Assembly: GCA_035363095.1 (NCBI GenBank)
Contig: DAOSEK010000004.1
Location: forward strand, 30,893 to 94,892
Direction of reading: 5' to 3'
Origin: Candidatus Woesearchaeota archaeon
GTDB taxonomy: Archaea > Nanobdellota > Nanobdellia > Woesearchaeales > UBA119
Length of the DNA stretch: 64,000 nucleotides
In this document: piece after piece, positions 35,548 to 58,943 of the stretch
How positions within the stretch are numbered: the first letter of the stretch is position 1
Layout of the letters: the number at the start of each line of letters is the position of its first letter
The notes under the pieces: model-generated
The model's database searches: none
What the model saw: only the letters and a program-made list of their open reading frames with translations
Told to the model about the DNA's origin: nothing
Position numbers and translations under genes: made by a program

Positions 35548-35560
35548 ATCTTTATAAGAG

Positions 35561-40486: not shown

Positions 40487-40490
40487 TACT

Positions 40491-43392: not shown

Positions 43393-43500
43393 TTGTTTCC
43401 AGCTATGAACGAAGTGGAGTTCGGAAAACCTGCATCCGCAACGTTATTTTCAAGGGCAGTATTCCGTTCCATAAAACAAAAGATTTAAATAATTATACGT

Positions 43501-44163: not shown

Positions 44164-44334
44164 AATTATCCAGAAAAACTGCCCTTTCTCTTTTTAAGCC
44201 CTTGAAAATAACTCTTTGGGATTTTTTCACTTCGTGAAATACTCAAAAATTTATAATTTTTGGTGCACAGAAAATCTATGATTTTCTTGTGAATCGTTGC
44301 ACTATCCCTCGGTCTTTTCTACGAAAAGACGCAA

Positions 44335-44358
44335 CTAACATAAGGATCCTTGTTATGT
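44335..44358 (+). repeat. Cassette-junction core 1
   Basis: ctaacataaggatccttgttatgt. Confidence 0.75.
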
Positions 44359-44386: not shown

Positions 44387-44405
44387 AATTGAACTAAGAA
44401 AATTT
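44387..44405. repeat. Cassette-bracketing inverted repeat, HD cassette, left arm (19 bp, perfect)
   Basis: aattgaactaagaaaattt, which overlaps the stop codon of the HD gene. Partner at 44818-44836. Confidence 0.85.
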
Positions 44406-44798
44406 ACGTGCATACTCAATCCAATCTTTATGATGAAGAGATAGTTTATCTGCTACTTGTATTATTCTACCATAGATTGTTGTAGGTGTTTGTTTTCTTC
44501 TATGATTAAGAATACAATCAGAGATTTCTTCTTTAATTGATTTAAATTCAGGATATTTCTGTAAAAATTTATCCAAATATTGAAGTCCTATCTCATGATG
44601 CTTATCTTTATCGTCTTTCCTTCCAACATCATGAATCCAACCACCAATATCAAAAATAATTGGATTTAAATCAGTATTCTTAATCATATTATTACAACAA
44701 TCTATTACACAAGCAGAATGAATTTTTATTTTTTCATCATTCCATTCTTGTTCAAAAAATTCTTTTGCCTTTGAATATGCATTACTCATAAAGATCAA
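44394..44798 (-). CDS. HD-domain phosphohydrolase
   Basis: IHDVGR (HD motif), HH..G; 134 aa. Confidence 0.72.
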   Translation of the reverse strand: MIFMSNAYSKAKEFFEQEWNDEKIKIHSACVIDCCNNMIKNTDLNPIIFDIGGWIHDVGRKDDKDKHHEIGLQYLDKFLQKYPEFKSIKEEISDCILNHRRKQTPTTIYGRIIQVADKLSLHHKDWIEYARKFS

Positions 44799-44817
44799 AT
44801 GTGCTCTTAGGTTTATA

Positions 44818-44836
44818 AAATTTTCTTAGTTCAATT
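44818..44836. repeat. HD cassette bracketing IR, right arm
   Basis: aaattttcttagttcaatt, the exact reverse complement of 44387-44405. Confidence 0.85.
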
Positions 44837-44839
44837 GCA

Positions 44840-44862
44840 AATAACATCGAGCCCTGTTAAGT
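44840..44862 (+). repeat. Cassette-junction core 2
   Basis: aataacatcgagccctgttaagt. Confidence 0.75.
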
Positions 44863-44907
44863 GAGGTCGAGGAACAAAGCGACTAAAGCGCAGCGTCCCC
44901 TTAGCGT

Positions 44908-44920
44908 TTAAGTTTTGGCA
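44908..44920. repeat. PRTase cassette bracketing IR, left arm (13 bp)
   Basis: ttaagttttggca; partner tgccaaaacttaa at 45493-45505. Confidence 0.8.
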
Positions 44921-44922
44921 AG

Positions 44923-45450
44923 TTACATTTCATCGATTATTCTAATTGCTTTAAGATTGTATTTTTGAAATAAAATTTGAGTCTGTTTATTTTTATGAGA
45001 ACAAAGGGAAGAGATTCCAACTATTTCTCCACCTAATTCTTCAATTAGTTTTATAGAAGATTTCATCTGAGTTCCTGTATCAATCCATTCATCAACAAGA
45101 AGTATTTTCTCACCTTTTTTGACTGATGATTTATTTATTTCAAAAGATTTTGATGTATTAGTATAATCAACAAAAGATGATTTTTTTAGAACTGTATCAT
45201 TAATTCCTGGAAGCTTTCCTCCTTTTCTGATGCAGATAAAACCTTTATTCTTCTTTTGTGCTAATGCTCCACCAATTACAAAACCTAATGCATCAAGTCC
45301 TGCAATTTTATCAAAATCTGCATCTTTGAAAGGTTCAATTAAATCATTAAGTAAATTTGAAAATACTTCAGGATTCTCAAAAATAGGAGTCACATCATAT
45401 CTTCCTTTTGTTTCTTTGTTGATAAATTGACTATAATATTCGTATTCCAT
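44923..45450 (-). CDS. Phosphoribosyltransferase (adenine/purine PRTase-like)
   Basis: ILLVDEWIDTGTQ PRPP-binding motif. Start set at MEYEYYSQF (ATG 45450); the TTG extension overlaps the IR. Confidence 0.72.
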   Translation of the reverse strand: MEYEYYSQFINKETKGRYDVTPIFENPEVFSNLLNDLIEPFKDADFDKIAGLDALGFVIGGALAQKKNKGFICIRKGGKLPGINDTVLKKSSFVDYTNTSKSFEINKSSVKKGEKILLVDEWIDTGTQMKSSIKLIEELGGEIVGISSLCSHKNKQTQILFQKYNLKAIRIIDEM

Positions 45451-45492
45451 ATTAAAAATAAACAGACTTGACTTTAATATAAATCTTTCGAG

Positions 45493-45505
45493 TGCCAAAA
45501 CTTAA
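45493..45505. repeat. PRTase cassette bracketing IR, right arm
   Basis: tgccaaaacttaa. Confidence 0.8.
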
Positions 45506-45510
45506 ATGTC

Positions 45511-45537
45511 ACTTAACATCACACAGTGCTGTTAAAC
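45511..45537 (+). repeat. Cassette-junction core 3
   Basis: acttaacatcacacagtgctgttaaac. Confidence 0.7.
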
Positions 45538-45673
45538 TCCCCAGAAAGAAGTGAGAGCGCAGCGTGGGTCGAGCGAAGCGAAGAAGTTTCTTACTGCCAT
45601 AAAATCTCACAGCTGCCGTAGTTTTTGCCAACTTAATCCAAAACTGTAGAAAAATATTTATACCGATATAAAT

Positions 45674-46384
45674 ATGTATGAAATAATGGCTAAATTTTTA
45701 ACAACTACGGGAGTATCTTATCATTTAGAAAATATAATAAAAAATGCAAAAGATAGATTAATTTTGATTAGTCCTTATTTACAAATAAATGAGAGAATTA
45801 AAGAGTTCCTTACAACAAAAAGTAAAGAGAAGACTGAGGTAAGACTCATATTTAAGGAAACGAATGAAATTGAACAACTTGATTGGCTAAAAAAATTGAA
45901 TCATTTTAGATTAAGTAAATGTAAAAACCTTCATGCAAAGTGCTATATGAATGATGATGAAGTCTTAATAACAAGTATGAACTTATTTGAGTTTTCACAA
46001 CAAAATAATAATGAAATGGGTATCTTAATAAGCAAAAACGATGATTTATCTCTCTTTAATGAAGTTTTAAAAGAAGTTACAAGAATTTTAGATGTAAGTG
46101 ATGAGGTTAAAGTTAGTATTCATAAAGTCAATCTTAAAAATGAAACTCATGAATATAAGCGAGAATTTGACTCTTCTTCTGAAAACGGATATTGTATTAG
46201 GTGCGGCAAAAAAATTAAAGTTGATATTATGAAACCTTATTGTCGTGATTGTTATGATGTATGGTCTGATTTTTTTAATCCAGATTATGAAGAAGTTGTT
46301 TGTCATGTATGTGGTAAAAGTAATAAATCTACAATGAATAAACCATTATGTTATGATTGTTATAAAGAAAATAAACAAGACTAA
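45674..46384 (+). CDS. PLD/Nuc-like (HxK) nuclease domain protein with two C-terminal CxxC zinc ribbons
   Basis: NLHAKCYMNDDEVLITSMNL (HKD motif); CIRCGK...CRDC and CHVCGK...CYDC. Confidence 0.7.
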   Translation: MYEIMAKFLTTTGVSYHLENIIKNAKDRLILISPYLQINERIKEFLTTKSKEKTEVRLIFKETNEIEQLDWLKKLNHFRLSKCKNLHAKCYMNDDEVLITSMNLFEFSQQNNNEMGILISKNDDLSLFNEVLKEVTRILDVSDEVKVSIHKVNLKNETHEYKREFDSSSENGYCIRCGKKIKVDIMKPYCRDCYDVWSDFFNPDYEEVVCHVCGKSNKSTMNKPLCYDCYKENKQD

Positions 46385-46541
46385 ACTCTCTTTCTGTCCT
46401 TGTTGGCAAAAATTTTGTTTAGCGAATATTATGAGAAGTTGCAGAGCAATTTTAAGTTGCCTTTTTGTGTGAGTTAAACGAAGGCACCTATCTTTTTGGA
46501 TTCTCGGATTACCTCCTCGGGAGGCAGTAAGAAAATTTTGG

Positions 46542-46565
46542 CTAACATAAGGATCCTTGTTATGT
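46542..46565 (+). repeat. Cassette-junction core 4
   Basis: ctaacataaggatccttgttatgt, identical to core 1. Confidence 0.75.
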
Positions 46566-46731
46566 GGGGAGACTGCAAGGCGAACGACCATAGGGACAGT
46601 TTTCAAAAATCCATGTCTTAAAGTGTGAAACACAATTCAACACAGAAATCAAGAGGTTTTGGACTAAAAAAGCGAAATATTTATATTATAGAATATTATA
46701 TTTCATTATAAATTATAATGAAGGTGATATT

Positions 46732-46977
46732 ATGGTACAAGCAATTGTAAAAATAGGAGAATATGAAGATAGGATTTTGACTATTGTTAAAGGTAAATTT
46801 GGACTCAAGAATAAATCTGAAGCAATAAATTTTGTTATTGATAAATATGAAAAAGAGCTTCTTGAACCTGAATTAAAACCCGAATTTATTAAAGAGATAA
46901 AAAATTTAGAAAAGAAAGGTAAATTCAAACCTTATAAGAGCCTATCTGCTTTGAAATCTGATATAGAAAATGCGTGA
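46732..46977 (+). CDS. Antitoxin of the adjacent RelE-like toxin
   Basis: 81 aa; 8-nt overlap with the toxin gene. Confidence 0.55.
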   Translation: MVQAIVKIGEYEDRILTIVKGKFGLKNKSEAINFVIDKYEKELLEPELKPEFIKEIKNLEKKGKFKPYKSLSALKSDIENA

Positions 46978-47239
46978 ATTTTCAATAGAAGAAGATTTGA
47001 AAAAGAATCTTAGTAAAATATCTAAAAAGGATAAAATTCTTTATAATGCAATTATGAAGAAGATTGAAGAGATCCTTACTTGTGAAGATGTTAATCATTA
47101 TAAAAATTTGAAGAAACCTCTTCAAGATTTTAAAAGAGTACATGTTAAGAGTTCTTTTGTTTTAACTTTTAAATATATTGAATCAGAGGATAAAGTCGTC
47201 TTTTATAGATTGAAACATCATGACGATATTTACCAATAA
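46970..47239 (+). CDS. RelE/StbE-family type II toxin
   Basis: 89 aa, ...FKRVHVKSSFVLTFKYIESEDKVVFYRLKHHDDIY. Confidence 0.68.
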   Translation: MREFSIEEDLKKNLSKISKKDKILYNAIMKKIEEILTCEDVNHYKNLKKPLQDFKRVHVKSSFVLTFKYIESEDKVVFYRLKHHDDIYQ

Positions 47240-47285
47240 GTCCAAAACCTCTTTCTGTTTTTTTCAGGATTTTTGAAAATTGCAC

Positions 47286-47309
47286 ATAACATCGGAATTC
47301 CTGTTATAA
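47286..47309 (+). repeat. Cassette-junction core 5
   Basis: ataacatcggaattcctgttataa. Confidence 0.8.
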
Positions 47310-47325
47310 TCCCCAAAGGGCAGAG

Positions 47326-47340
47326 TTAATCTTGAGCCCC
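47326..47340. repeat. ASCH cassette bracketing IR, left arm (15 bp, perfect)
   Basis: ttaatcttgagcccc (the last 4 codons plus stop of the gene). Partner at 47727-47741. Confidence 0.85.
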
Positions 47341-47685
47341 GTTTAGAAGTCTTATCTTAATCCCTAAAACTCCATATTGTTGCTCTTTTTCTTTAGAATA
47401 AATTGTGTAAATACTATTTACAAAATTTTCAACAGAATAATCTTTTGGATAGCCATAATACTCCATTCCAAAATCATTTACCAAATCTCTAAAAGATTTG
47501 TATCTTAAAAGAGCAACAATTTCAACTTTTACTTTATCCTCTAAATCTGGCAATTTGGAAAATTCAATAATATCTCCAACATTCAACTCTTGACGTTTTT
47601 CATCATAAAGTCTAATTTCAATTGTTTTTTTGCCAGATGAAATTCTTTCATAAGGACTTTCTAAAAGTTTCATTGAATGTTCCAT
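47326..47685 (-). CDS. ASCH-domain protein
   Basis: SGKKTIEIRLYDEKRQELNVGDII is typical of ASCH. Start set at MEHSMKLLES; the track extension to 47793 crosses core 6. Confidence 0.68.
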   Translation of the reverse strand: MEHSMKLLESPYERISSGKKTIEIRLYDEKRQELNVGDIIEFSKLPDLEDKVKVEIVALLRYKSFRDLVNDFGMEYYGYPKDYSVENFVNSIYTIYSKEKEQQYGVLGIKIRLLNGAQD

Positions 47686-47726
47686 AGATAAAGTAAAAGT
47701 TGCTAATGATATAAAGTTTTGTGTTA

Positions 47727-47741
47727 GGGGCTCAAGATTAA
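47727..47741. repeat. ASCH cassette bracketing IR, right arm
   Basis: ggggctcaagattaa. Confidence 0.85.
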
Positions 47742-47746
47742 TTGAA

Positions 47747-47771
47747 TATAACATCGGGATCCTTGTTAAAC
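47747..47771 (+). repeat. Cassette-junction core 6
   Basis: tataacatcgggatccttgttaaac. Confidence 0.8.
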
Positions 47772-47831
47772 GTCCCGAACGAAGTGAGAGCACAGCGTGG
47801 TCGTAGTGTAGCGAAGCGGAACGGAGAAGTC

Positions 47832-47843
47832 ATAAAAAGGTGC
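47832..47843. repeat. 2H-phosphoesterase cassette bracketing IR, left arm (12 bp)
   Basis: ataaaaaggtgc; partner gcacctttttat at 48385-48396. Confidence 0.75.
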
Positions 47844-47883
47844 GATACATTAATAAAAGAATAAGAATAATTGATTTTATAGA

Positions 47884-48384
47884 ATGAAACAAGTACTTAC
47901 AATTTTTTTAGATAAGGATGAGAAGATAGATAATATTAGAAAGAAATATGTTCCTAATTATGAAAAATTTGAACCTCATATTACATTAGTTTATCCTTTT
48001 GAGTTTGAAGATCAAGATAAACTTAAAGAACATATTTCTGAATTATTAAAAGATTTTGAACCTTTTGAAATTTCATTAGAAGGATTGCAAAAATCTGAAA
48101 AAGGATTCTATCTCTATCTTCTTGTAAATAAAGGAAAAGAAAAAATTGTAAGTTTGCATGAAAAGTTGAATGGTGGAATATTAGACGATTTTAGAAATCC
48201 TGATATGCCAAAATATATTGCTCATTTGTCAATTTGTGTCTTTGAAAATGAAGAACAAAGAGAGAAAGCAATTGATGAGATTTCTAAAATTAATATTAAA
48301 TTTGAGATGAAAATTAATTCCATTCAGCTTTTAACAATTGATGAAAACCATTCTTTAAAATCTAAAGAAGAATTCTATCTTTAA
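47884..48384 (+). CDS. 2H phosphoesterase (LigT / 2-prime-5-prime RNA ligase-like)
   Basis: Two HxT/S motifs: EPHITLVYPF and IAHLSICV. Confidence 0.7.
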   Translation: MKQVLTIFLDKDEKIDNIRKKYVPNYEKFEPHITLVYPFEFEDQDKLKEHISELLKDFEPFEISLEGLQKSEKGFYLYLLVNKGKEKIVSLHEKLNGGILDDFRNPDMPKYIAHLSICVFENEEQREKAIDEISKINIKFEMKINSIQLLTIDENHSLKSKEEFYL

Positions 48385-48396
48385 GCACCTTTTTAT
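48385..48396. repeat. 2H-phosphoesterase cassette bracketing IR, right arm
   Basis: gcacctttttat. Confidence 0.75.
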
Positions 48397-48403
48397 TATT
48401 ACG

Positions 48404-48431
48404 TTGAACATCGGGCTAAGCCCTGTTATAT
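48404..48431 (+). repeat. Cassette-junction core 7
   Basis: ttgaacatcgggctaagccctgttatat. Confidence 0.75.
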
Positions 48432-48466
48432 GACCCTCACGAAGTGAGAGCGCAACGTGGCTTGAG

Positions 48467-48480
48467 TTCCGAACCCCGCC
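48467..48480. repeat. Cys-rich-protein cassette bracketing IR, left arm (14 bp, perfect)
   Basis: ttccgaaccccgcc; partner ggcggggttcggaa at 49102-49115. Confidence 0.85.
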
Positions 48481-48490
48481 GTTTCAGTTA

Positions 48491-49044
48491 TTATTTCCTC
48501 AACTTTAAATAATATTTTTTTTGTTCTGCAATCTCATCCAAAATAGAATGTAATAATTTGGATTTTTCTTTGATATTTAATCCTTTAGAGTTTTGTTTTG
48601 CGGTATTTAATGCGTTTTTCAATTCTTCAATATCTATTATAGTCGATGCAATGCAATAATAGCTTTTTGAACGTCCCTCGTTAAATTCTTGTAGTATTTC
48701 TTTCAGAAGTTGTTCTCTTTTTTTTGTACCTTTTCGAATTTTGCTACTCCGTTTTTTTGAATAAAATCAATATCTTATTCTAGTTTTTGGTAGCATTTGA
48801 AGGAATCATGTTTCTTCCCAGCTTCTCTGTGTTTCTTCCATTTATCACAAGTTTTACTTTCTTCACAATCCCAGCAAAATTCGACCCCCTTCTTCTTTAT
48901 GGCACAGGTAATAAATGGACAACCAACAGCCATTCTTCCTTCGCTTTTACATCCTAAGCATCGACTTTCTGCTTCGGCATTATAATTGGGACAAAGTCGG
49001 CATGAAAGACCACATATTCCGATTTCAGGATATTTGATTTTCAT
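48491..49044 (-). pseudogene. Cys-rich (DUF3795-like) protein gene, interrupted by an in-frame TAA and a homopolymer frameshift
   Basis: The 89-aa ORF 48775-49044 (CGLSCRLCP..CLGCKSE..CPFITCA..CWDCEE) ends at TAA. Coding-looking sequence continues (DIDFIQKNGVAKFEKVQKK, then in another frame REQLLKEILQEFNEGRSKSYYCIAS...LKLRK*) after a T8 run at 48718-48725. Confidence 0.5.
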
Positions 49045-49101
49045 AGTATTTCCTTAAATAAAATTATCATCTTCTGTTTAATGATCTTGTTGTTTTCAGT
49101 A

Positions 49102-49115
49102 GGCGGGGTTCGGAA
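49102..49115. repeat. Cys-rich-protein cassette bracketing IR, right arm
   Basis: ggcggggttcggaa. Confidence 0.85.
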
Positions 49116-49120
49116 TTTCA

Positions 49121-49145
49121 TATAACATCGGAAGCCCTGTTAAGT
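49121..49145 (+). repeat. Cassette-junction core 8
   Basis: tataacatcggaagccctgttaagt. Confidence 0.8.
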
Positions 49146-49246
49146 GAGGGTCGAACGAAGTGAGAAGCGCAGCGTCCCCTTAAGTTGAGAATTTGTTCGT
49201 TCAAGTGAGAAGCACCATAAAATAAATACATCAAAAGGTTTTGGGC

Positions 49247-50026: not shown

Positions 50027-50125
50027 AGGGAATCACCTTATTAATATTTTAAAAAGAATATATTTAATAAATGTATCGAAAACCCAAAACCTTCATCAGT
50101 TAGTTAAGGACAAATTCTCAATTTC

Positions 50126-50150
50126 ACTTAACATCGTGTTTCTGTTAGTT
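50126..50150 (+). repeat. Cassette-junction core 9
   Basis: acttaacatcgtgtttctgttagtt. Confidence 0.7.
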
Positions 50151-50406
50151 GCGTCACGAAGTGACCGAGGGATAACTACAAGTGGTTTTTCACGAAGTGA
50201 AAAAATCCCGAAGAGTTATTTTCAAAGGCGACCAATCAAAAGAGCGAATGCAATATCCTCAAAAATTGTAAATTTTTGGGACATCAGAAATATCTGATTT
50301 CTTAGTGCATAAAGAACAAGAATCGAGGGACAATTTTATTATTATCAAGCAAGGAAGTGCCATCAAATAAACACATTGAGGCGAGAAAACTATTTTTTAT
50401 GTGTAA

Positions 50407-50874
50407 TTATATTATTTTAAATTCATACCAAAGCATTTCAAGAGTAGGAGTTATTTTTTCTTTTTTTGTTAATATAAAGTTTTTGGATTCAAAAAAATCT
50501 TTATTATCCATAAATTCAAAAGTATCAGTGATTATTTTATTAATATGTCTCAATTTACAATGCTTAATGAATTTTTCTAATAGTTTTTCTTTTATTTCAA
50601 TCTCCGTAGAAGCAATATAATGTATCATGGTTTGATTATTTAATACATCTTCGTATCCTACGATAAAGCCTACAAGTCTTTTAGAAGTCAAAGCACTAAA
50701 AGCAATCAACTTTGGATTTTCAAATTCTTTTATTATATTTTCTTCTTCTGCATGTTCCCTAAACTTATTAATAATTTCTTTTGGAAATTTTGGGTTGGGA
50801 TTATTTAATTCAGATAACATAAATTCGGATATTTGCTTTGAATGTTCGTTTTTTGCTTTGATTATTTTCATCAT
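50407..50874 (-). CDS. GNAT-like acetyltransferase (last gene of the RiPP-like operon)
   Basis: 155 aa with GNAT-like size and layout (LVGFIVGYE...). ATGA overlap with the upstream radical SAM gene. Confidence 0.55.
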   Translation of the reverse strand: MMKIIKAKNEHSKQISEFMLSELNNPNPKFPKEIINKFREHAEEENIIKEFENPKLIAFSALTSKRLVGFIVGYEDVLNNQTMIHYIASTEIEIKEKLLEKFIKHCKLRHINKIITDTFEFMDNKDFFESKNFILTKKEKITPTLEMLWYEFKII

Positions 50875-51788
50875 TGATACCTTAACTTTGATTTGGTTAT
50901 TTTATCTAATTCACTAGTTCCAAACATATCAATATATTCTTTCCATGCAGATTCCCATGCCCACGAACAATTTTTGTTTATTAAACAATCGTTACAGTAG
51001 TCTGGTTGAGCCACGTCTAAATTTCCAAAAATAGTTTCTTCAGGAGAGATATAAATCATTTCTTTTGTCATTTCTTTCCAATTTATACTCAAATATTTCC
51101 AATAAGAAGGGTCTAATGTGCAAGAAGGAATAATAAAAACCCCTAAGTTTTTATCTCTTCGAATCGCTTCATCTAATGCATCTTCAATATATGGCTTCAT
51201 TTCTTTATATCTGGCAACAAGTTGTTCACGATTATCATTTGCATGTCCCCTCATAATTAAACCATGAATCGAAACCCATGCAGAATGAAAAGTATCATAT
51301 GCAAAACTAACAAAATCTGAAAGCTCTTGATAATTTTGTTTTAAAACTATTGTTTTTACAGAAATAGGTAATTCAATTTCTTCTAAATTTTTTAAACCTT
51401 GTAATGTATCTAAAAAACTTCCTTTTCTTTGAGTAATCATATCATGTTTTTCTTCGTATGGACTATAAAAAGTAGTCATTACTCTATCGACACCAACTTC
51501 TTTCACTTGCTTACTGAAGGATTTATCTTTAAATTTACGACCATTAGAAAGGATAATAAGGTTTGTATCATGATTAGATTTTAGATAATGGCAAATATCA
51601 AATAAATCTTCTCTTAATGTTGGTTCGCCACCGCTAATCTCGATGTAGTCATCTTTGGATGGTTTTATCAAGTCAATCTTTTCAATAATTTGGTCTAAAT
51701 TTAAACGTCCTTTTTCATCTAATTTTTTGGCACAGGAAATACAAGCACTATTACAAGCGTAGTCGGTAACTAAAAATATTTTTCTCAT
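50871..51788 (-). CDS. Radical SAM enzyme with partial SPASM/twitch-like C-terminal Cys cluster
   Basis: DYACNSACISC (CX3CX2C), ISGGEPTL, C-terminal CNDCLINKNC (CX2CX5C). Confidence 0.8.
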   Translation of the reverse strand: MRKIFLVTDYACNSACISCAKKLDEKGRLNLDQIIEKIDLIKPSKDDYIEISGGEPTLREDLFDICHYLKSNHDTNLIILSNGRKFKDKSFSKQVKEVGVDRVMTTFYSPYEEKHDMITQRKGSFLDTLQGLKNLEEIELPISVKTIVLKQNYQELSDFVSFAYDTFHSAWVSIHGLIMRGHANDNREQLVARYKEMKPYIEDALDEAIRRDKNLGVFIIPSCTLDPSYWKYLSINWKEMTKEMIYISPEETIFGNLDVAQPDYCNDCLINKNCSWAWESAWKEYIDMFGTSELDKITKSKLRYQ

Positions 51789-52672
51789 TTTTTTACCTCA
51801 AAAACTGGAGAGTAATAAACACAAAGAGACTCGTTTTTACCCTTTTCTGAGAATGTTAGACCTATGTGGCTATATTTTATTGGTGCATTAAATTCTAAAA
51901 GATTTGTTATTTCTTTAAAATTCCTAAATCTATTAGGAATACTCTTCTCTATCATTTTTTCAATGTTCTGATTTGAGTAATTAGCAACTTCAAAAAATAT
52001 AGATAAACCTTCAAACCCTTCTTTTGAATATTTCTTAGAAATGGTTGTATCTTTGAGTATTTCATCAGAAGATAATTGTAAAAAATATTCGAAATATCTA
52101 GAATTGATGCCTGAATCTTCTAAATATTTTTTGGTTCTAAAGAAATCTACATCTTTTTCTCGCGAATATATTTTCACATTCCTATGATTTGTTTTGTAGA
52201 AATCTACTCCTAAAAGATAACTGTTTTTTAATTCTTCTTCAACCATTTGTATTTTCTTGATGCGATTTATCTTTAAAAAATCATTTATATGCTTAATTGG
52301 TTCGGTATTAAATTCTAAGTTATCTGGTAGTCTTAAAAGATAAATTTTTAATCTACTACTTCTATCATTATAATCAAATCCTAATGCTATTTCTGGGGCA
52401 ATCTTTTCTGCAAAATTGAGAGTTTCGTTCAGATTTGAGATATCATAATCACTTTCTTTTAAGAAAGGTCTAATTTTCTTTATATTATGTAATTTGAACA
52501 ATCCGAATCTTAAATCAAATTTATCTTGTGGATTAATTAACAATGAAAATTCGATTCTATTTTGTAGGTCTTCATAATCTGAATATAATTCATCATATGT
52601 TTTTGTGAATTCAGAAAAATCAATACAATGGAACCACTTAATATGATCTTCTAAATAACTAAGAGATTCCAT
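51785..52672 (-). CDS. Hypothetical 295-aa protein co-transcribed with the precursor-like peptide and radical SAM gene
   Basis: No catalytic motif recognised. Recurrent strand-like K(I/V)Y segments (RLKIYLL, NVKIYS, LSIFFEV, LCVYYSP). ATGA overlap with the downstream gene. Confidence 0.5.
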   Translation of the reverse strand: MESLSYLEDHIKWFHCIDFSEFTKTYDELYSDYEDLQNRIEFSLLINPQDKFDLRFGLFKLHNIKKIRPFLKESDYDISNLNETLNFAEKIAPEIALGFDYNDRSSRLKIYLLRLPDNLEFNTEPIKHINDFLKINRIKKIQMVEEELKNSYLLGVDFYKTNHRNVKIYSREKDVDFFRTKKYLEDSGINSRYFEYFLQLSSDEILKDTTISKKYSKEGFEGLSIFFEVANYSNQNIEKMIEKSIPNRFRNFKEITNLLEFNAPIKYSHIGLTFSEKGKNESLCVYYSPVFEVKK

Positions 52673-52688
52673 TTTTCAAAAAACGAAG

Positions 52689-52886
52689 TTAATACCAACT
52701 TCCAGGACCCATTCCTACATTATATTTTTGTATTTCACCTTTAGGATTGTCTGAATCCAAGGGTACATATTTACCTAATTTCTGTGAGTATATCGTAGGT
52801 ATCTCGTCCTTTGTGGCATAATTAGTTCTATCTTCAGATAGTTTTGAACTTATATTTTCTTTTTCAACGATTTGTGTTAAACTCAT
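52689..52886 (-). CDS. 65-aa Cys-free peptide, candidate RiPP precursor (C-terminus GMGPGSWY)
   Basis: First gene of the operon. gaggggg SD 7 nt upstream and a tttatata box about 70 nt upstream. Confidence 0.5.
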   Translation of the reverse strand: MSLTQIVEKENISSKLSEDRTNYATKDEIPTIYSQKLGKYVPLDSDNPKGEIQKYNVGMGPGSWY

Positions 52887-53059
52887 TTTGTTTTACCCCC
52901 TCAAAAATTTTTTCAGTCATTTGGCTGATACTTATTACTAAATCATTGAAATATATAAAGTTTATGTTGATTTTTCCGGAAAGTTTTCGGAAATAGTTTT
53001 CTCGCCCTTAAATAATAAAATTGTCCCCTTCTACTTTTTAGCCCTTGAAAATAATTGCA

Positions 53060-53083
53060 ATTAACATCGGGGCCCTGTTCTAT
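53060..53083 (+). repeat. Cassette-junction core 10
   Basis: attaacatcggggccctgttctat. Confidence 0.75.
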
Positions 53084-53203
53084 TCGTCTGAATACTTGGA
53101 GGACTTGATTTTTAGTGCAACGATGCCGAAGGCAAAAAATCAAAGTAATTTCGGGGCCGTATTAAATCCAGCGAACAAAGTGAGCCATAAAGAATAAGTA
53201 TCA

Positions 53204-53246
53204 AGGGGCAATTATCAGTTTTTTTTTCGTCGTGGGGGGAATTCCG
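53204..53246. repeat. Left terminal inverted repeat of the MBL/radical-SAM cassette
   Basis: aggggcaattatc..cgtcgtggggggaattccg. Partner at 55744-55795 (cggaattccccgcctcgtcg..gaaaattgccccc). Confidence 0.75.
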
Positions 53247-53253
53247 TTTTTTG

Positions 53254-53276
53254 CTTCTTTTTTAAGAAAAAAGAAG
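53254..53276. terminator. T-rich perfect palindrome downstream of the MBL gene
   Basis: cttctttttt-aa-gaaaaaagaag, 10 nt past the stop on the minus strand. Confidence 0.35.
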
Positions 53277-53285
53277 ATTTTCAAA

Positions 53286-54182: not shown

Positions 54183-54197
54183 TCTCCATTAACCTCT

Positions 54198-55625
54198 TTA
54201 TACAAGTACATAGCAGTGAGACATTTTTAGTTGTTGTCTCCCTTCTATCTTTTGTAATCTGAATGAACCTGCTTGAGTTGTTGGTTTATCTGTCAAATCA
54301 AGAGTTTCTATATAAACTTTAATTTTGTCTTTTAATAAATATTTTTCAGTTCCACAACCGGGGGCATGATAAGTTTTACTTTGCCATTGTGCTTTACAAA
54401 CACAACCTCCTCCACAAGAAGGCAGATAGGCATGTTCTCTGCATTGTTCAATATTAACAGGATTTCTTTCTAGAACATCTCCGTAAACAGAAGTTTTTTC
54501 TAAATTCCCATCAAAATCAATTCTTCCAACCATGTGTTCTTTTAATCCAACAAGTTCCCAGCATTTGTAAACCTCTCCAAATGCATCAATTATGTAAGAA
54601 CCGTCAGCAACACTACTACAAGGAAGTGGCTGAATCTGTGGCCTAATATCTAAAGGAAACCCTCTTTCGTGAGCTTTTCTCCAAAGTTCAGGCATGACTC
54701 TAAATAATTTTAAATCCGATAAGGTATGGCTTTCAAAATCAGCACATGCGTCAGTAAAAGAAGTTATATAACAAAAATCAGGATATACATGAGTTAAATC
54801 TCTAGACTTAAGTTCATCTAATAATCTTTCCATAGTAGGATATGTTTCGTCCGTAAGACTTATTCTAATATGTGTCTCAACATCTGTTCCCCGTGTCATG
54901 CCAAGAACTCTTGCTATATCCTCAAAAGAACCCCTTCTGTCTTCTTTGTAGAATCTATATTTGTTATGCATTTCTGGATCACCATCAACAGGAATTTGCA
55001 ATCTAGTTCCGTATCCAGAAAGCCATCTAACCATATTCTCGTCTATTAAACTGCCATTACTCAAGACATGCAAACCAAAAGCAATATTATTTTTTCTTGC
55101 CCATTCTGAAACCTCTTCAGTTAATTCTCTGCCCATTTCTCTTGCTCCAGGCAAGAAAGGTTCTCCGCCATAAAGAACAAGTTCTAATTTTCGGGCGCCT
55201 CTTTCAGTAGTTGTTTTTTTAATAAATTTTTTAGTTGCACCTAATAATTCAGGACTCATCGATTTAAATCCATGAATTTGTTGACCTTTTTCTCCCCTGC
55301 CTTGATAACAATAAGGACATTCAAAATTACAATCATAAGTTAACAAAGCATTAAATTCAACATTTTCTCTTCCATCTTTCCATCTTCTGTGCATTTGGGC
55401 ATATTCTTCTAATTCATCTAATCGGGGAGGAATTAATATTCCCTGTTCTTTCAAATCTTCAACTAAACCGTCTAATGAAGAATTATCAAGAGGTGCTAAA
55501 TCTTTGCTTTTTAGTAATTGGGCTAATTCTGGATTAACTCTGCTTATAGAACCTCTTAAGGTATTGTAAACTAATTCAGTCCCATTATTCTCTCGCACAA
55601 ATACATTAAATCTGGAATTTTTCAT
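54198..55625 (-). CDS. Radical SAM / SPASM-domain maturase-like enzyme
   Basis: YDCNFECPYCYQG (CX3CX2C), GGEPFL, C-terminal Cys cluster (YKCWE..., CREHAYLPSCGGGCVC), N-terminal FNVFVRENNGTELVYNTLRGS typical of anSME/peptide-maturase relatives. Confidence 0.82.
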   Translation of the reverse strand: MKNSRFNVFVRENNGTELVYNTLRGSISRVNPELAQLLKSKDLAPLDNSSLDGLVEDLKEQGILIPPRLDELEEYAQMHRRWKDGRENVEFNALLTYDCNFECPYCYQGRGEKGQQIHGFKSMSPELLGATKKFIKKTTTERGARKLELVLYGGEPFLPGAREMGRELTEEVSEWARKNNIAFGLHVLSNGSLIDENMVRWLSGYGTRLQIPVDGDPEMHNKYRFYKEDRRGSFEDIARVLGMTRGTDVETHIRISLTDETYPTMERLLDELKSRDLTHVYPDFCYITSFTDACADFESHTLSDLKLFRVMPELWRKAHERGFPLDIRPQIQPLPCSSVADGSYIIDAFGEVYKCWELVGLKEHMVGRIDFDGNLEKTSVYGDVLERNPVNIEQCREHAYLPSCGGGCVCKAQWQSKTYHAPGCGTEKYLLKDKIKVYIETLDLTDKPTTQAGSFRLQKIEGRQQLKMSHCYVLV

Positions 55626-55743
55626 TTTTATTCTACTCCAAGCTTGTTTTGTTATAAAAAGGTATTGTTCTAAATTTTATAAACCTCTTGCTTCTAAAGT
55701 CGTAACACTTTTGAGGAAGCTGGGAGTATCTGTCCGTAGGACT

Positions 55744-55795
55744 CGGAATTCCCCGCCTCGTCGTTTTTGTTTTTAGTTTTTAGAAAATTGCCCCC
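55744..55795. repeat. Right terminal inverted repeat of the MBL/radical-SAM cassette
   Basis: cggaattccccgcctcgtcg-tttttgtttttagttttta-gaaaattgccccc. Confidence 0.75.
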
Positions 55796-55820
55796 TTCGT
55801 TAGCCCCTGAAATTATTGAA

Positions 55821-55845
55821 TAGAACATCGGAATTCCTGTTAGTT
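55821..55845 (+). repeat. Cassette-junction core 11
   Basis: tagaacatcggaattcctgttagtt. Confidence 0.8.
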
Positions 55846-56115
55846 TCGTTTTCGGTTACGAAGTCCCGAAAACCTGCGTCCGCAGAGTCGGGAGAAAGGG
55901 CGTTCCATCAAATGAGCGAATGCGATATCCTCAAAAATTGTAAATTTTTGGGACATCAGAAATCTTTGATTTCTTAGTGCATCAATAACAAGAATTTAGG
56001 GGCAGTTTTCCGTTACATTTATATATACAAAGGAATATACATATCTTGTAATGGTTATAGTAAAGGGGATAGTCCTGCCTTAGGGCAAGACAGTAAATCC
56101 CCTATTTTTTTAAAA

Positions 56116-56778
56116 ATGAAAATTGCTATATTTGTGGATTCTGAAAATTTTCGTGCAAGTATAAATTGCATTAATGAAGAGCGTAAACAAGATAGGTATA
56201 TTGATTGGCATAAAATTAATTTGTTTGTTCTAGATTATTTGTCAAATAATCCTCAATTTAAAAATGAAAAATTGAGTCATATTAGAACATATGTTTATAC
56301 TGGAGAATATACTGAACATTTGATCAAAAGAATTGAAGATGCAATAAAAAAGGACACAAAAAATGAAAATTTGAAAAGAATTCTTGAATCAGCAAAGCAT
56401 AATCGGCAGGCACAGATTGATTTTTATAAAAAAGCAAACTCGTACTATTTTTTTGAAATTAGAAAAAAACCCCTTCAATTTACATCTTCTAAAGGTATAT
56501 TTCAGAAAGGTGTAGACGTACAAATCGCAGTAGATTTAGTATCTTTTGCTCATCAAAATTTTTATGATGTTGCGGTAATATTTTCAGGTGATATAGATTT
56601 ACTTGAATCTCTTAAAACGGTAAAAAATTTAGGTAAGCAAGTAATAATATTTTCCCATTACAAAAATATTGCTGTTGAAATGAAAAGAGAAGCAGATATG
56701 TATATTAATTTTCAGAATCTTGCTGATAAACAATTGGATGGAATTGCACATATGTTCCAAAAGAAACAAAATCACTAG
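56116..56778 (+). CDS. NYN (LabA-like) domain putative RNase
   Basis: MKIAIFVDSENF, GVDVQIAVDLV, VIFSGDIDL. Confidence 0.72.
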   Translation: MKIAIFVDSENFRASINCINEERKQDRYIDWHKINLFVLDYLSNNPQFKNEKLSHIRTYVYTGEYTEHLIKRIEDAIKKDTKNENLKRILESAKHNRQAQIDFYKKANSYYFFEIRKKPLQFTSSKGIFQKGVDVQIAVDLVSFAHQNFYDVAVIFSGDIDLLESLKTVKNLGKQVIIFSHYKNIAVEMKREADMYINFQNLADKQLDGIAHMFQKKQNH

Positions 56779-56819
56779 GAAAACTGCCCCTTTCCGTTTT
56801 TAGCCCTTTCTCCCGATTG

Positions 56820-56957
56820 AAACTAACATCGGAATTTAACGAAGTTTATTTTTCAGAGCGGAGGAATTTTGAGGCACCCCACAAAATTCCGACCTCGAAA
56901 AATAAATTTGGGTGGAGAAACCTGCAAGGTTTCGGAACCGTTAAATTCCTGTTCTAT
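56820..56957 (+). repeat. Cassette-junction core 12, long form (138 bp, branched)
   Basis: aactaacatcggaatttaacg...[two internal hairpins]...cggaaccgttaaattcctgttctat. Confidence 0.75.
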
Positions 56958-57228
56958 TCGTCCGAATACTTGGAGGACTTGATTTTTAGTGCAACGATGC
57001 CGAAGGCAAAAAATCAAAGTAATTTCAGGGGCGTATTCAATCAAGGGAACAAAGTGAGCTATAAAGAATAAGTATCAAGGGGCAATTTTCAGTTCGTCGT
57101 TCGTGGGGGGAATTCCGTTTTTTGCTTCTTTTTTCTTAAAACAGACGATTTTTAGAGTGGGCTTTTATTTTGGTTCTTTTTCTAAAAAAAGAGATAAAAA
57201 GTATATTTAATTCTTCGTTTATTATTTC

Positions 57229-57999
57229 TTAGAAGTTAGTCACATACTTTTTGTCTTTTTGCACAATATATCCGTCATACTCAATAAATTCTTTTATTAT
57301 TTCATTTTTGCAGTTTAGAGAGATTTCTTTGCCGGGAGGGTATTTAGCAATCTCAAACAAAGCATCTTTTCTTTCAGAACTATCTTCTGAACTAATAAGA
57401 AATAATATTTCATGTATGAATTCTGAAGTTAAATCGTATTCTGAAAAGTTTTCGATTATAGTTTTTAATATTTTAAAATCATCTATTGAATAGATTTTCT
57501 CAAGCGTCTCGATGTCTTTAAAGAGATATTTTGTATGGTTATTTTTCATAATTCTAAACATATTGGGGTTTAGCAATAAATTATATTTTTCAAATAGTTT
57601 CAGGTAAATAAATAGACACATTGAAGAATTGTTTGATTTCGCAATACGCTTAATCTCTTTCATATCCGATGTTGGGAAACCTATCCATTCAATAAATTTG
57701 TCTTTGTTGAATTTCACTGTCTTAACATCAAAAAAAGATTTTAGAAAATTAATTTCTTTTTCTTGTGATGGAGCGAGGTATATTAATGGTTCGGATTCCC
57801 TTATCAATTCTAAGTTTGAAGTGATTACTTCAAAATCAGGGTACATCAACATTTTTATTTTTGAATCTTTTAAACTTGAAGGGTCGTATATTTTTTCATA
57901 ATCAAGTTCTCCCATTTCTCCAAAAGGATTTATAATAACCAAACCCTTATTTTCACATATATTTCCAATTCCAAGAAGATTGTTCTTGTTTCCGACCAT
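57229..57999 (-). CDS. Hypothetical protein (256 aa)
   Basis: Clean ORF filling one cassette. No motif recognised. Confidence 0.5.
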   Translation of the reverse strand: MVGNKNNLLGIGNICENKGLVIINPFGEMGELDYEKIYDPSSLKDSKIKMLMYPDFEVITSNLELIRESEPLIYLAPSQEKEINFLKSFFDVKTVKFNKDKFIEWIGFPTSDMKEIKRIAKSNNSSMCLFIYLKLFEKYNLLLNPNMFRIMKNNHTKYLFKDIETLEKIYSIDDFKILKTIIENFSEYDLTSEFIHEILFLISSEDSSERKDALFEIAKYPPGKEISLNCKNEIIKEFIEYDGYIVQKDKKYVTNF

Positions 58000-58212
58000 T
58001 TTTATGAAAGTATTTTGTTAATATTAATAAATCTTTTCATATATTTTAAATGTCGAGCGAAGCGAGTGTAGATGTCCTTTAGGACTAGGAACTCCCCCCT
58101 TAAATTAAAGAACTCCCCCTTCTACTAATAAATATCGAACGAAGTGAGTGAATATGTGCGAAGCACCGAACTCCCTCCCGTTTTTCGTAATTTAGAACTT
58201 AAACACAATTGA

Positions 58213-58300
58213 ACTTAACATCGGAATTTAACGAAGTCGCACGAAGTGCGATTTGGGAAAAATGCGAGCCGAGAGATTTTCCTTCAAATCCGTGTTAAAC
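58213..58300 (+). repeat. Cassette-junction core 13, long form (88 bp, right arm degenerate)
   Basis: acttaacatcggaatttaacgaagtcgcacgaagtgcgatttggg...tccgtgttaaac. Confidence 0.65.
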
Positions 58301-58358
58301 GTCCCGAACGAAGTGAGAGCGCAGCGTGGTCGTAGTGGAGCAAAGCGGAACGGAGAAG

Positions 58359-58373
58359 TTCTAATTTTGTCGC
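58359..58373. repeat. HIT cassette bracketing IR, left arm (15 bp, perfect)
   Basis: ttctaattttgtcgc; partner gcgacaaaattagaa at 58814-58828. Confidence 0.85.
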
Positions 58374-58374
58374 G

Positions 58375-58779
58375 TTAAGAAAGTAGTTTTTGTTGTATTT
58401 TTTTTACTTCATCAAGGCTTTTTGATTTTCCATGAAACCATAAATCCAATCCATCATTTTCAAATCTTGGAACGACATGAAAATGTAAATGAAAAACACT
58501 TTGTTGAGCATCTTTTCCTGATGCGTTTAAAATATTAACTCCTGTTGCTCCAAGTTTTTCTTTACATAAAATTGCCATTTTTTTACAAACTTGATTAATT
58601 CTATTAAGAATTTCATCAGGAGTTACAAATATATTCTCAAAGTGTTTTTTTGGAATAAGTAATAAATGTCCGTTAGATGTTGGATTGATATCTAAAAAAG
58701 CCTTGACTAAATCATCTTCAAATAATTGAAAACAAGGTATTTCATTATTTGCGATTTTACAAAAACTACATTCTGCCAT
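58375..58779 (-). CDS. HIT-family (histidine triad) nucleotide hydrolase/transferase
   Basis: HLHFHVVPR histidine triad; CxxC at the N-terminus. Confidence 0.85.
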   Translation of the reverse strand: MAECSFCKIANNEIPCFQLFEDDLVKAFLDINPTSNGHLLLIPKKHFENIFVTPDEILNRINQVCKKMAILCKEKLGATGVNILNASGKDAQQSVFHLHFHVVPRFENDGLDLWFHGKSKSLDEVKKIQQKLLS

Positions 58780-58813
58780 AATAATATAAGATTTTAATTA
58801 ATATATAAATTTA

Positions 58814-58828
58814 GCGACAAAATTAGAA
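58814..58828. repeat. HIT cassette bracketing IR, right arm
   Basis: gcgacaaaattagaa. Confidence 0.85.
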
Positions 58829-58832
58829 TTAC

Positions 58833-58943
58833 GTTTAACATCGGAATTTAACGAAGTCGTTTAAGTTCGGAGCGAAGCGGAGAACATTAAACGATTTGGG
58901 AGAGGGGCGAGCCGAGCCCCGAACCGTTAAATTCCTGTTAGTT
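58833..58943 (+). repeat. Cassette-junction core 14, long form (111 bp, branched)
   Basis: gtttaacatcggaatttaacg-aagtcgtttaa..ttaaacgatttggg-agaggggcgagccgagcccc-gaaccgttaaattcctgttagtt. Confidence 0.78.

Follow-up and report, generated by a model that had tools for sequence, protein, structure and literature searches.

Cassette-specific inverted repeats in an archaeal gene array as candidate halves of a foldback recombination site

A cassette array with conserved cores and paired arms

The DNA examined here (the window) is a stretch of 64,000 nucleotides (nt) from contig DAOSEK010000004.1 of a Candidatus Woesearchaeota archaeon. It is an AT-rich archaeal chromosome segment (~31% GC) with genes for GatD/GatE, RtcB, a topoisomerase, a protein of the eRF1 family (eRF1 or Pelota), and an RPA-like protein. 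From ~39.5 to 59.2 kb, the window carries an array of ~15 gene cassettes with a conserved core between them, and the inverted repeats that bracket these cassettes are the subject of this report. Most cassettes hold a single gene, and their products include toxin-antitoxin pairs, nucleases, and methyltransferases. The genes lie on both strands, roughly two thirds of them on the minus strand, and the cassettes have their own TATA-like boxes. No tRNAs were found in the window or array and no Rfam families were matched there, although Rfam is not known to have an attC model.

Each core has the form AACAT(C)-short palindrome-(T)GTTA, as in AACATAAGGATCCTTGTTA at 44337-44355 of the forward strand, and all 16 cores of the array point the same way. 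Unsplit cores start at 39564, 43371, 44337, 44843, 45515, 46544, 47288, 47750, 48407, 49124, 50130, 53063, and 55824, and the AACA of the split cores is located at 56825, 58217, and 58837. An asymmetric TC follows AACA in every one of the 16. The tip between AACA and TGTT varies in length from 6 to 13 nt, is palindromic throughout, and tolerates inserts of 70-190 nt. A tip that is variable in length but always palindromic fits the end of a hairpin better than it fits a fixed double-stranded spacer.

The initial annotation of this DNA had listed 15 pairs of inverted-repeat arms just inside the cores, and all 15 are located where it placed them. Perfect pairs are found in the cassettes encoding an HD protein (19 nt), a phosphoribosyltransferase (PRTase; 13 nt), a PLD protein (11 nt), an ASCH protein (15 nt), a 2H phosphoesterase (12 nt), a Cys-rich protein (14 nt), a methyltransferase (outer pair 12 nt, inner pair 11 nt), an NYN protein (13 nt), and a HIT protein (15 nt), and also in the inner pair of a RelE-type toxin-antitoxin cassette (14 nt). 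The outer RelE pair matches at 15 of 16 positions, and the pair of the metallo-beta-lactamase (MBL)/radical S-adenosylmethionine (SAM) cassette is composite. The accompanying statement that every cassette is bracketed in this manner holds for 13 of 14 cassettes, while the one at 57229-57999 has an imperfect pair that was not in the original list (GGGGGGAATTCC at about 57108 and GGAACTCCCCCC at about 58093, 11 of 12 positions). For the PIN toxin-antitoxin cassette, the pair first reported is weak (9 nt), and a perfect 15-nt pair adjoins it (left arm GTTATTTTCAAGGGC at 43443-43457, right arm GCCCTTGAAAATAAC at 44198-44212).

As a natural control for these pairings we used mismatched cassette ends, which do not differ from matched ends in composition or type of sequence. 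The 230 nt that follow one core (i) were compared with the 130 nt that precede another (j), and the longest exact inverted match between them was recorded; the combination of i with i+1 represents the matched ends of one cassette. In the window, matched ends gave a mean longest match of 13.1 nt, with 11 of 15 at 12 nt or more, compared with a mean of 8.3 nt for mismatched ends (standard deviation 1.6, 99th percentile 12.9). A separate inverted-repeat scan recovered 103 pairs from the array (43.3-59.3 kb), perfect repeats of 16-19 nt included, versus 62 pairs from an equal-sized housekeeping stretch (14-30 kb), in which only one of the 25 longest was perfect (14 nt, AT-only). The concern that such repeats might be no more frequent than in control sequence is therefore not borne out, because the array exceeds both the housekeeping stretch and the mismatched ends. 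The same difference is apparent among 90 unique core-to-core intervals, which came from the window and from loci in other genomes and metagenomes: 37% of these own-end intervals, versus 1.7% of 1454 mismatched combinations, have ends joined by an inverted match of 11 bp or more. Moreover, the arms occupy fixed positions. Of the 33 cassettes with arms of this length, 17 have a spacing of exactly 8 nt between the end of the right arm and AACATC, and the left arm follows on immediately from a GC-rich module whose last bases are GAAGAG or GAAAAG.

Housekeeping AT-rich DNA does yield many imperfect inverted repeats, as the 62 pairs in 16 kb attest, and chance matching was considered as an account of the arms. 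It is refuted by the comparison of matched with mismatched ends in the window and in the 90 cassettes, by the constant placement of the arms with respect to the core, and by the folding contrast and covariation test described below. We give it practically no weight.

The core is not confined to this organism. Its commonest 19-mer is present in 33 contigs of a species-representative genome collection, almost all of them archaeal, with labels that include Woesearchaeota, Nanoarchaeota, Methanosarcinales, Bathyarchaeia, and Promethearchaeota, and in another 99 metagenome contigs. Several of these contigs carry arrays in which the cores again share one polarity. Perfect repeats of 13-16 bp, 350-1700 nt apart and often nested, are found in at least 16 of 30 short metagenome loci, and 68 archaeal or metagenomic loci have the motif TTG-N4-TAACATCG ahead of the core. 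Close relatives of the cassette proteins and of the core motif likewise come from Woesearchaeota/Nanoarchaeota and other uncultured archaea. The inverted repeats are real and are not peculiar to one genome.

Complementarity between the two ends of a cassette

Closer to the core than the arms lies a second layer of complementarity. The 10 nt at the right end of a cassette, ending in TAACA, are the reverse complement of the 10 nt at its left end, starting with TGTTA, and this inner stem directly abuts the conserved AACA/TGTT of the cores. All 10 positions match in the PRTase, Cys-rich, methyltransferase, MBL/radical SAM, NYN, and HIT cassettes of the window, and elsewhere in the loci designated L016 (twice), L012, L005, and L008. 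The inner stem is 9 nt long in the RelE cassette and partial in the HD, ASCH, 2H, and RiPP-like cassettes (4-7 contiguous nt, some with a second short block; RiPP, ribosomally synthesized and post-translationally modified peptide). None of the 28 cassette ends compared departs from AACA and TGTT, and 24 of the 28 have T:A at the next position, while the outer consensus RYYY/RRRY is not strictly followed. At this otherwise conserved next position, the MBL/radical SAM cassette reads TGTTC on the left and GAACA on the right in place of the usual TGTTA/TAACA, a compensated change between sites 2.7 kb apart. In contrast, the flanks of any single core match each other over the conserved 4-6 nt only.

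The same distinction emerges from covariation among 28 cassettes from eight genomes, assessed against 500 shuffles. When the sequences were paired by cassette, 85.4% of cells were paired and the covariation score was 0.291, compared with 0.118 ± 0.020 in shuffles, none of which scored as high; double-sided changes numbered 39 versus 17.4 in shuffles. When the identical sequences were paired by core, 72.9% of cells were paired and the score fell to 0.101, which was equaled or exceeded by 408 of the 500 shuffles. Because the inner stem pairs the ends of one cassette and not the flanks of one core, the sequences place the probable crossover inside the core, between AACA and TGTT. A cassette would then read 5′-TGTTAnnnnn, GC-rich module, arm, promoter and gene, arm′, TTG, nnnnnTAACA-3′.

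Units that start with TGTTA, end with TAACA, and carry perfect terminal inverted repeats of up to 10 bp could also be gene-carrying, MITE-like (miniature inverted-repeat transposable element) nonautonomous transposons with TG...CA termini, inserted serially by a DDE transposase into a preferred palindromic target. Elements of the IS3 type (IS, insertion sequence) have TG..CA termini and form circle junctions with abutted ends. The resemblance to such IS3/IS911-type elements extends to the possession of an inverted repeat of one's own and to a reaction point at the center of a palindrome formed where the circle ends abut. However, although terminal inverted repeats are present, target-site duplications can be rejected because adjacent tips differ in sequence and length. 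The repeats also differ among units beyond the terminal 5 nt, such that no single transposase could recognize them by sequence, and no transposase was found within the units, among the large open reading frames of the window, or beside four other arrays. Furthermore, the conserved palindromic tip between units (TC..CC) acts as part of the site. We regard serial transposition as very unlikely.

For nine cassettes, of which the window supplied six and other genomes three, we re-joined the two ends across a core and folded the products as single-stranded DNA. All nine folded stably, at -19.6 to -32 kcal/mol with z scores of -2.6 to -7.3, and none of 200 shuffles did as well. In each case the closing stem consisted of the arms, and within it were the inner stem with its tip and hairpins formed by the GC-rich module. 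Four real chromosomal junctions, in which the same halves are joined to the neighboring cassette's partner, reached -9.2 to -11.9 kcal/mol (z scores of +0.28 to -0.86) and folded no better than shuffles. This contrast indicates that the structure is made only by two ends that belong to the same cassette. The suggestion in the initial annotation that the arms pair across the core into one long hairpin, to be cut near its tip and not at its base, is supported by the inner stem, by the folding contrast, and by the core-to-core extent of an orthologous RiPP-like cassette that is described below.

Cassette ends, neighboring genes, and orthologs

The arms and termini can be followed along the array. 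The left arm of the HD cassette (44387-44405) pairs at 19 of 19 positions with the right arm (44818-44836); as originally noted, arms can overlap stop codons, and this one includes the last three codons and the stop of the HD gene. On the gene strand, its right arm is immediately 5′ of a TATA-like box, TTTATAAAC. The left terminus of the PRTase cassette, TGTTAAGTGA (44855-44864), matches its right terminus, TCACTTAACA (45509-45518), at 10 of 10 positions. Between the left terminus and the left arm is a GC-rich module (44860-44907, forward strand) of a family also present at 49143-49182, which makes one or more hairpins of its own when the re-joined junction is folded as single-stranded DNA. 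The left arm (44908-44920), which is 2 nt from the stop codon, pairs with the right arm at 45493-45505. In the PLD cassette, the arms at 45622-45632 and 46402-46412 pair and the inner stem is weak (5 nt). The outer and inner left arms of the RelE cassette span 46597-46664 and have partners at 47267-47282 and 47240-47253, with inner-stem termini at 46558-46566 and 47283-47291 (9 nt). The ASCH left arm (47326-47340) coincides with the final four codons of the gene and its stop codon (GGG GCT CAA GAT TAA on the gene strand) and pairs with 47727-47741, which ends 8 nt before AACATCG and lies just 5′ of a TATA-like box on the gene strand.

Next along the array, the 2H phosphoesterase left arm (47832-47843) has its partner (48385-48396) directly after the stop codon. 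The Cys-rich cassette has a left terminus TGTTATATGA (48424-48433) that matches TCATATAACA (49118-49127) at 10 of 10 positions, and its arms are at 48467-48480 and 49102-49115. The methyltransferase cassette has the same termini as the PRTase cassette, with TGTTAAGTGA at 49138-49147 matching TCACTTAACA at 50124-50133 in full, and two arm pairs, 49184-49196/50110-50121 and 49233-49245/50083-50093. Three nested left arms are found in the RiPP-like operon cassette within 50216-50395 (50216-50229, 50327-50343, and 50380-50395), and their respective partners are at 53041-53054, 53011-53027, and 52991-53006; the pair first described here thus extends to 17 nt and gains two nested companions. A module of ~100 nt inserted at 50235-50337 interrupts these left arms. 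The MBL/radical SAM cassette has a left terminus TGTTCTATTC (53076-53085) fully complementary to GAATAGAACA (55818-55827; 10 of 10) and a composite left arm (53204-53246) that pairs with 55744-55795 and lies inside a 208-nt module 90% identical to 56948-57152. Lastly, the NYN terminus TGTTAGTTTC (55838-55847) pairs with GAAACTAACA (56819-56828) and the HIT terminus TGTTAAACGT (58293-58302) with ACGTTTAACA (58831-58840), each at 10 of 10 positions, with arms at 55997-56011 and 56778-56790 and at 58359-58373 and 58814-58828, respectively.

Non-coding modules of 100-210 nt that are 90% identical are common to the left ends of unrelated cassettes, where they interrupt the left arms. One such pair joins the RiPP-like and NYN cassettes (50235-50337 and 55907-56009), and another joins the MBL/radical SAM cassette and the cassette at 57229-57999 (53074-53281 and 56948-57152). 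Cassette ends are mosaics of movable modules. The palindromic tips of three cores in the window carry inserts of ~70-110 nt, located at 56829-56945, about 58229-58290, and 58849-58929. The first and last of these, whose ends are both clear, have a terminal inverted repeat of their own (TAACGAAG...CGTTA) and an apparent AATT duplication, which identifies the insert as a small element that targets core tips. Split cores of a similar kind are present in L012 and L034.

Larger rearrangements have also left traces. A 497-bp direct duplication (39141-39637 and 42949-43444, 98% identical) consists of part of a toxin-antitoxin cassette, a core, and a GC-rich module. It flanks a 3.3-kb segment (39638-42948) with 44% GC whose genes, as read by eye, resemble those for a methyltransferase, a histidine phosphatase, a glycosyltransferase, and a kinase. 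Judging from this arrangement, the segment looks like foreign DNA put in by a single crossover. To the left of the array are fossil fragments: a piece of a 2H-phosphoesterase pseudogene at 34371-34622 (74-79% identical to 48134-48384) followed by a decayed core (ATTGCAATTAAAAT), and 107 nt of an antitoxin gene at 35447-35553 (99% identical to 39361-39467).

The arms have a consistent relation to the genes. One arm overlaps the stop codon or is 0-17 nt from it in 12 of 13 cassettes, and in the HD, ASCH, 2H, NYN, RelE, and PLD cassettes the sequence places the partner arm upstream of the TATA-like box. The first of these facts accords with an alternative raised in the initial annotation, in which the arms pair in the transcript and join its 5′ and 3′ ends for stability, processing, or circularization, given that the stop-codon-side arm would be in the 3′ end of the mRNA. 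RtcB is also encoded in the window, but as the ordinary tRNA-splicing ligase it lends this idea little support. The second fact argues against it, because a transcript from the cassette's own promoter would not contain the promoter-side arm in any of these six cassettes. The inner stem, moreover, is anchored on a conserved DNA core motif, and the covariation follows cassette ends. We therefore consider a role for the arms in RNA highly improbable.

One arm is often formed by the gene's own last codons, with the reverse complement of those codons located just upstream of the promoter, and this might say something about how cassettes originate. Three homologs of the HD gene (L138, L139, and L141; 66-76% identical to 44394-44798 of the window) reside among housekeeping genes in DPANN-like contigs that lack cores and arms, and the one in L139 keeps a similar C-terminal K-V-S-stop. 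These repeat-less homologs suggest that the upstream arm of the HD cassette is a derived reverse-complement copy of the end of the gene. Perhaps the housekeeping and cassette states of the HD gene could reveal the birth of a cassette.

Evidence for movement comes from the RiPP-like operon cassette (50130-53063), which has an ortholog with different neighbors in L012, a metagenome-assembled genome (MAG) labeled Methanosarcinales. The similarity runs from the left core through the GC-rich module, the arms, and the genes, and it ends at TTGCAAYTAAC(A/G)TCG in the right core. Because the left GC-rich module has traveled with the cassette and the right one has not, the crossover would again be placed in the core, which argues against viewing the whole inter-cassette element as a classical attC site. 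That view, in which the right arm would serve as R″, the left arm as R′, and the crossover would fall at G|TT after the GC-rich module, is ruled out by these modules together with the 10-nt complementarity across cassettes, and only the boundary of the 497-bp duplication fits it. Viruses were considered as carriers and rejected: the exact core is absent from viral contigs, and 70 degenerate-core matches there lack the upstream TTG-N4 motif and represent chance.

Movement of this kind also bears on the idea that the cassettes are gene-sized invertons, flipped by a recombinase acting on the quasi-palindromic cores, with repeats that are needed for flipping or left by it. Invertons are likewise gene-sized segments with locus-specific inverted repeats of 11-30 bp, and the presence of array genes on both strands accords with flipping. 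In addition, one GC-rich module is found inverted on the other side of a core (44198-44239 versus 50188-50229, 95% identical), and inversion between perfect terminal repeats would leave the 10 bp beside each core unchanged. However, flipping a cassette would not switch its expression, because a promoter-like TATA box lies within each one, and the orientation of genes relative to the GC-rich module is already mixed and hence is no guide to cassette orientation. The arms differ among cassettes and could not be read by a single sequence-specific invertase. Unlike those of invertons, the repeats lie at a fixed distance from a shared core, and the units are arrayed and have been moved between genomes to new neighbors, which goes beyond flipping. 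Inversion is quite unlikely as the basis of the repeats.

Other orthologs reveal what becomes of the arms over time. Both arms of the HD cassette are kept in L034, while the copy in L035 has degenerate cores and partly decayed arms. The ASCH arms pair at 15 of 15 positions both in the window and in L212 and differ by one compensated replacement of G:C by A:T, in which a codon changes from Gly to Arg and, 400 nt away, C becomes T. The ASCH copy in L216 has intact cores, a complete inner stem (10 of 10), and one uncompensated arm change; that in L217 has two uncompensated arm changes and degenerate cores on both sides; and pairing is largely lost in L213, L214, and L215. Judged from these copies, arms appear to persist where cores are intact (the window, L212, and L216) and to decay in fossil copies with degenerate cores (L035, L214, L215, and L217). 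The two ortholog checks proposed in the initial annotation therefore gave mixed answers. Compensatory change is represented by the single ASCH example alongside three uncompensated ASCH changes, with only conservation or single uncompensated changes in the HD and RiPP-like cassettes. Arms are retained by the orthologs in L034, L212, and L216 and have decayed in those of L035, L213, L214, and L215.

A possible split foldback site and its relation to known systems

On the strength of the cassette anatomy, the two layers of end-to-end complementarity, the folding contrast, and the recurrence of these features across archaea, we think it probable that the inverted repeats at the two ends of a cassette each represent half of a single long foldback recombination site, which would be contiguous only once the cassette is excised or circular. 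In such a circle the order would be arm′, TTG, nnnnnTAACA, a palindromic tip of 6-13 nt, TGTTAnnnnn, the GC-rich module, arm, and promoter plus gene. A single strand of it might fold into an outer stem of 11-19 bp (sometimes two or three nested stems), an inner 10-bp stem with the conserved AAC/GTT triplets beside the tip, and side hairpins from the GC-rich module. For the ASCH cassette, the predicted excised-circle junction is ...GGGGCTCAAGATTAATTGAATATAACATCG-tip-TGTTATAATCCCC...TTAATCTTGAGCCCC, and the expected junction can be written for every cassette and sought directly.

Recombination of this site with an array core would take place between AACA and TGTT, near the tip. Integration would thereby split all of the stems, which would leave each cassette bracketed by its own inverted repeats. 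A junction within the array, composed of the ends of two different cassettes, could not fold, and the site would re-form only by panhandle pairing of one cassette's ends in single-stranded DNA. Such pairing would rebuild the inner stem with its AAC/GTT triplets, and a trans-acting recombinase could then cut and join next to the tip. The freed cassette would keep its foldback intact and might recombine with a core elsewhere. Some 10-nt terminus types are common to several cassettes (e.g., TCACTT/AAGTGA in the PRTase and methyltransferase cassettes), and for this reason the longer, unique arms might provide register and partner specificity.

Two enzyme classes are candidates, namely the Xer/IntI-like tyrosine recombinases and the single-strand HUH nucleases. 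With an HUH-type enzyme the anatomy would be the same, and only the enzyme class and chemistry would differ: peel-off rolling-circle copying would begin with a nick at the tip of the core hairpin, synthesis would continue to the next core, and a single-stranded circle of one cassette would be released that folds into a long hairpin with the nick site at its tip for re-insertion. Rolling-circle origins have this geometry, with a cut close to the apex of a long hairpin. The constant polarity and the asymmetric TC after AACA in 16 of 16 cores, the tolerance of variable tip lengths, and the strong folding of re-joined junctions only when both ends come from one cassette would all suit this chemistry. 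Yet the conserved bases TAACA/TGTTA are arranged as symmetric inverted halves, which is more usual in a dimeric-recombinase site than in a single nick site, and no HUH/Rep or Y1-transposase gene was found in the window or beside four other arrays. We judge an HUH nuclease to be unlikely.

A trans-acting tyrosine recombinase of the Xer/IntI kind is suggested, as a lead only, by the inverted AAC/GTT, by the tolerance of variable tips, and by a resemblance to the archaeal XerA dif arm. The dif site of Pyrococcus abyssi is ATTGGATATAA|TCGGCC|TTATATCTAAA (PMC2958812). The right-end motif ATTGnnnnTAA agrees in some cassettes with the arm ATTGGATATAA at 10 of its 11 bases, and this motif is enriched (26 matches versus 11.8 expected). 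A full dif-like site was rejected, as 11+6+11 arrangements show no excess in the window and no symmetric version exists in 211 loci, which leaves a half-site resemblance only. Neither the xerA gene nor the true dif site of this organism is within the window.

Mobile elements that exploit Xer offer instructive parallels. When CTX phage integrates, the hairpin halves of its folded, single-stranded attP site end up at opposite ends of the prophage. Like such elements and the pdif modules of Acinetobacter, the archaeal cassettes have no recombinase of their own and might use a host enzyme in trans, and a single-stranded hairpin that makes the site and is split to the ends of the insert renders CTX-type attP the closest mechanistic parallel. 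The pdif modules are similarly bounded by short Xer-type sites. However, dif has two 11-bp arms and a 6-bp spacer, whereas the spacing between the inverted halves here varies from 6 to 13 nt, and pdif sites alternate in orientation, whereas all sites here have a direct orientation, in arrays of more than 10 cassettes.

The other obvious comparison is with integrons, which share tandem small cassettes with mostly single genes, a structured site with conserved inverted AAC/GTT, and a crossover beside these triplets. They also share site families common within a genome and arrays that often lack an adjacent integrase, as in clusters of attC sites lacking integron-integrases (CALIN). In classical cassettes, 6-7 nt at the ends are complementary (TTRRRY at the 5′ end and RYYYAA of the cassette's own R″). 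The earlier assertion that integron cassettes have no inverted repeat of their own is for that reason too strong, because the first bases of the cassette do complement bases near its own 3′ end, but it remains correct that the extent (up to 10 nt plus the arms) and the geometry are different here. Both the inverse core with AAC and GTT and the crossover at R′ have counterparts in the archaeal array, the latter extended to 10 nt, while a contiguous 57-141-nt hairpin does not fold within the array, where the gap from AACA to TGTT is 6-13 nt.

Further differences concern the site and its surroundings. The archaeal sites have 12-15 nt (or an insert) between AAC and GTT in place of the 45-130-nt L box and variable loop of attC. 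The greater part of their palindrome is located beyond the crossover and becomes divided on integration, so that the array contains no contiguous site. The GC-rich module is on one side only. Integron cassettes are promoterless and co-oriented and are served by Pc and attI, whereas the archaeal cassettes have TATA-like promoters of their own and genes in both orientations. Neither the ~30 large open reading frames (ORFs) scanned in the window nor 20 located next to arrays in four other loci gave a match to Phage_integrase/IntI, though an integrase may be encoded elsewhere in the genome. Nine archaeal attC sequences have been published that are classical and GC-rich (..TAAC ... GTTAGGC, 70-90 nt; Ghaly et al. 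2022, PMC9668308, Data S9), and our core motif is absent from the supplements of that study. Our literature search found no paper that contains the core sequence or describes arrays of this layout. If the proposed foldback site is correct, standard attC searches would see few integrons in these archaea because the published archaeal attC sequences do not have this core.

Several observations weigh against the foldback proposal. The inner-stem match is missing in arrays L015 and L017, where split or degenerate cores have perhaps been missed, and in the PLD and 57229-57999 cassettes of the window. In the wider set, ~60% of intervals lack an arm of at least 11 bp, although some of these arm-less core-to-core intervals are probably false or compound. 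GC-rich modules are common to unrelated cassettes, and parts of the ends may therefore move independently. The boundary of the 497-bp duplication falls at ..GCAACG|T, after the GC-rich module and outside any core, and does not agree with the proposed crossover. With uncompensated changes (three) outnumbering the compensated one among close ASCH orthologs, selection for pairing is not demonstrated at that level. Finally, no circular or excised form of a cassette was seen, and a Pfam scan revealed no recombinase gene of any kind among the ~30 large ORFs of the 64-kb window or among 20 large ORFs beside the arrays in four other loci.

The best reading of the data is an integron-like variant with a foldback site cut near its tip. 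It is a more tentative proposition, to which we give somewhat less than even credence, that the arrays constitute a distinct and widespread archaeal cassette system with promoter-bearing cassettes and tip recombination at a split, cassette-specific foldback, served by host XerA or another enzyme and not by an array-adjacent integron integrase. Judging from where its sequences are found, this system might extend across DPANN lineages and MAGs labeled Methanosarcinales, Bathyarchaeia, and Promethearchaeota (Asgard). No platform for stockpiling and shuffling single genes other than the integron is well understood, and integrons are built on self-contained folded attC sites. Here the same outcome, with arrays of defense, toxin-antitoxin, and accessory genes, would apparently be reached with a cassette-specific site that is split by integration. 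If true, substrate recognition would be different in that the two ends of one cassette must find each other, and a hidden layer of gene mobility would exist in DPANN and other uncultured archaea.

The surroundings of the array have some additional features. To its right, 59338-62538 encodes a 1066-amino-acid protein that combines a PLD-type nuclease domain with SNF2/DEAD helicase domains, and an ORF that runs from 62535 to beyond 64000 resembles an N6-adenine methyltransferase by eye. This neighborhood is defense-island-like. Among the other loci, GmrSD adjoins the ASCH cassette of L216. GC skew is strongly negative at 1-25 kb, near zero at 26-56 kb, and positive at 56-64 kb, with a cumulative minimum near 56 kb. 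The array may thus be at an origin or terminus of replication, although gene-strand bias confounds the skew.

The intergenic DNA of the housekeeping part contains two families of interspersed, MITE-like repeats of ~135 nt, whose copies are 72-91% identical and occur in both orientations. One family is located at 1761-1895, 2112-2246, 12456-12588, and 33200-33334, and the other at 6174-6319, 13253-13399, 13663-13797, 22374-22512, and 28704-28835. A 66-bp tandem repeat with copies that are 98% identical lies at 19189-19356, within an ORF (19012-20196) that has a triosephosphate-isomerase-like domain.

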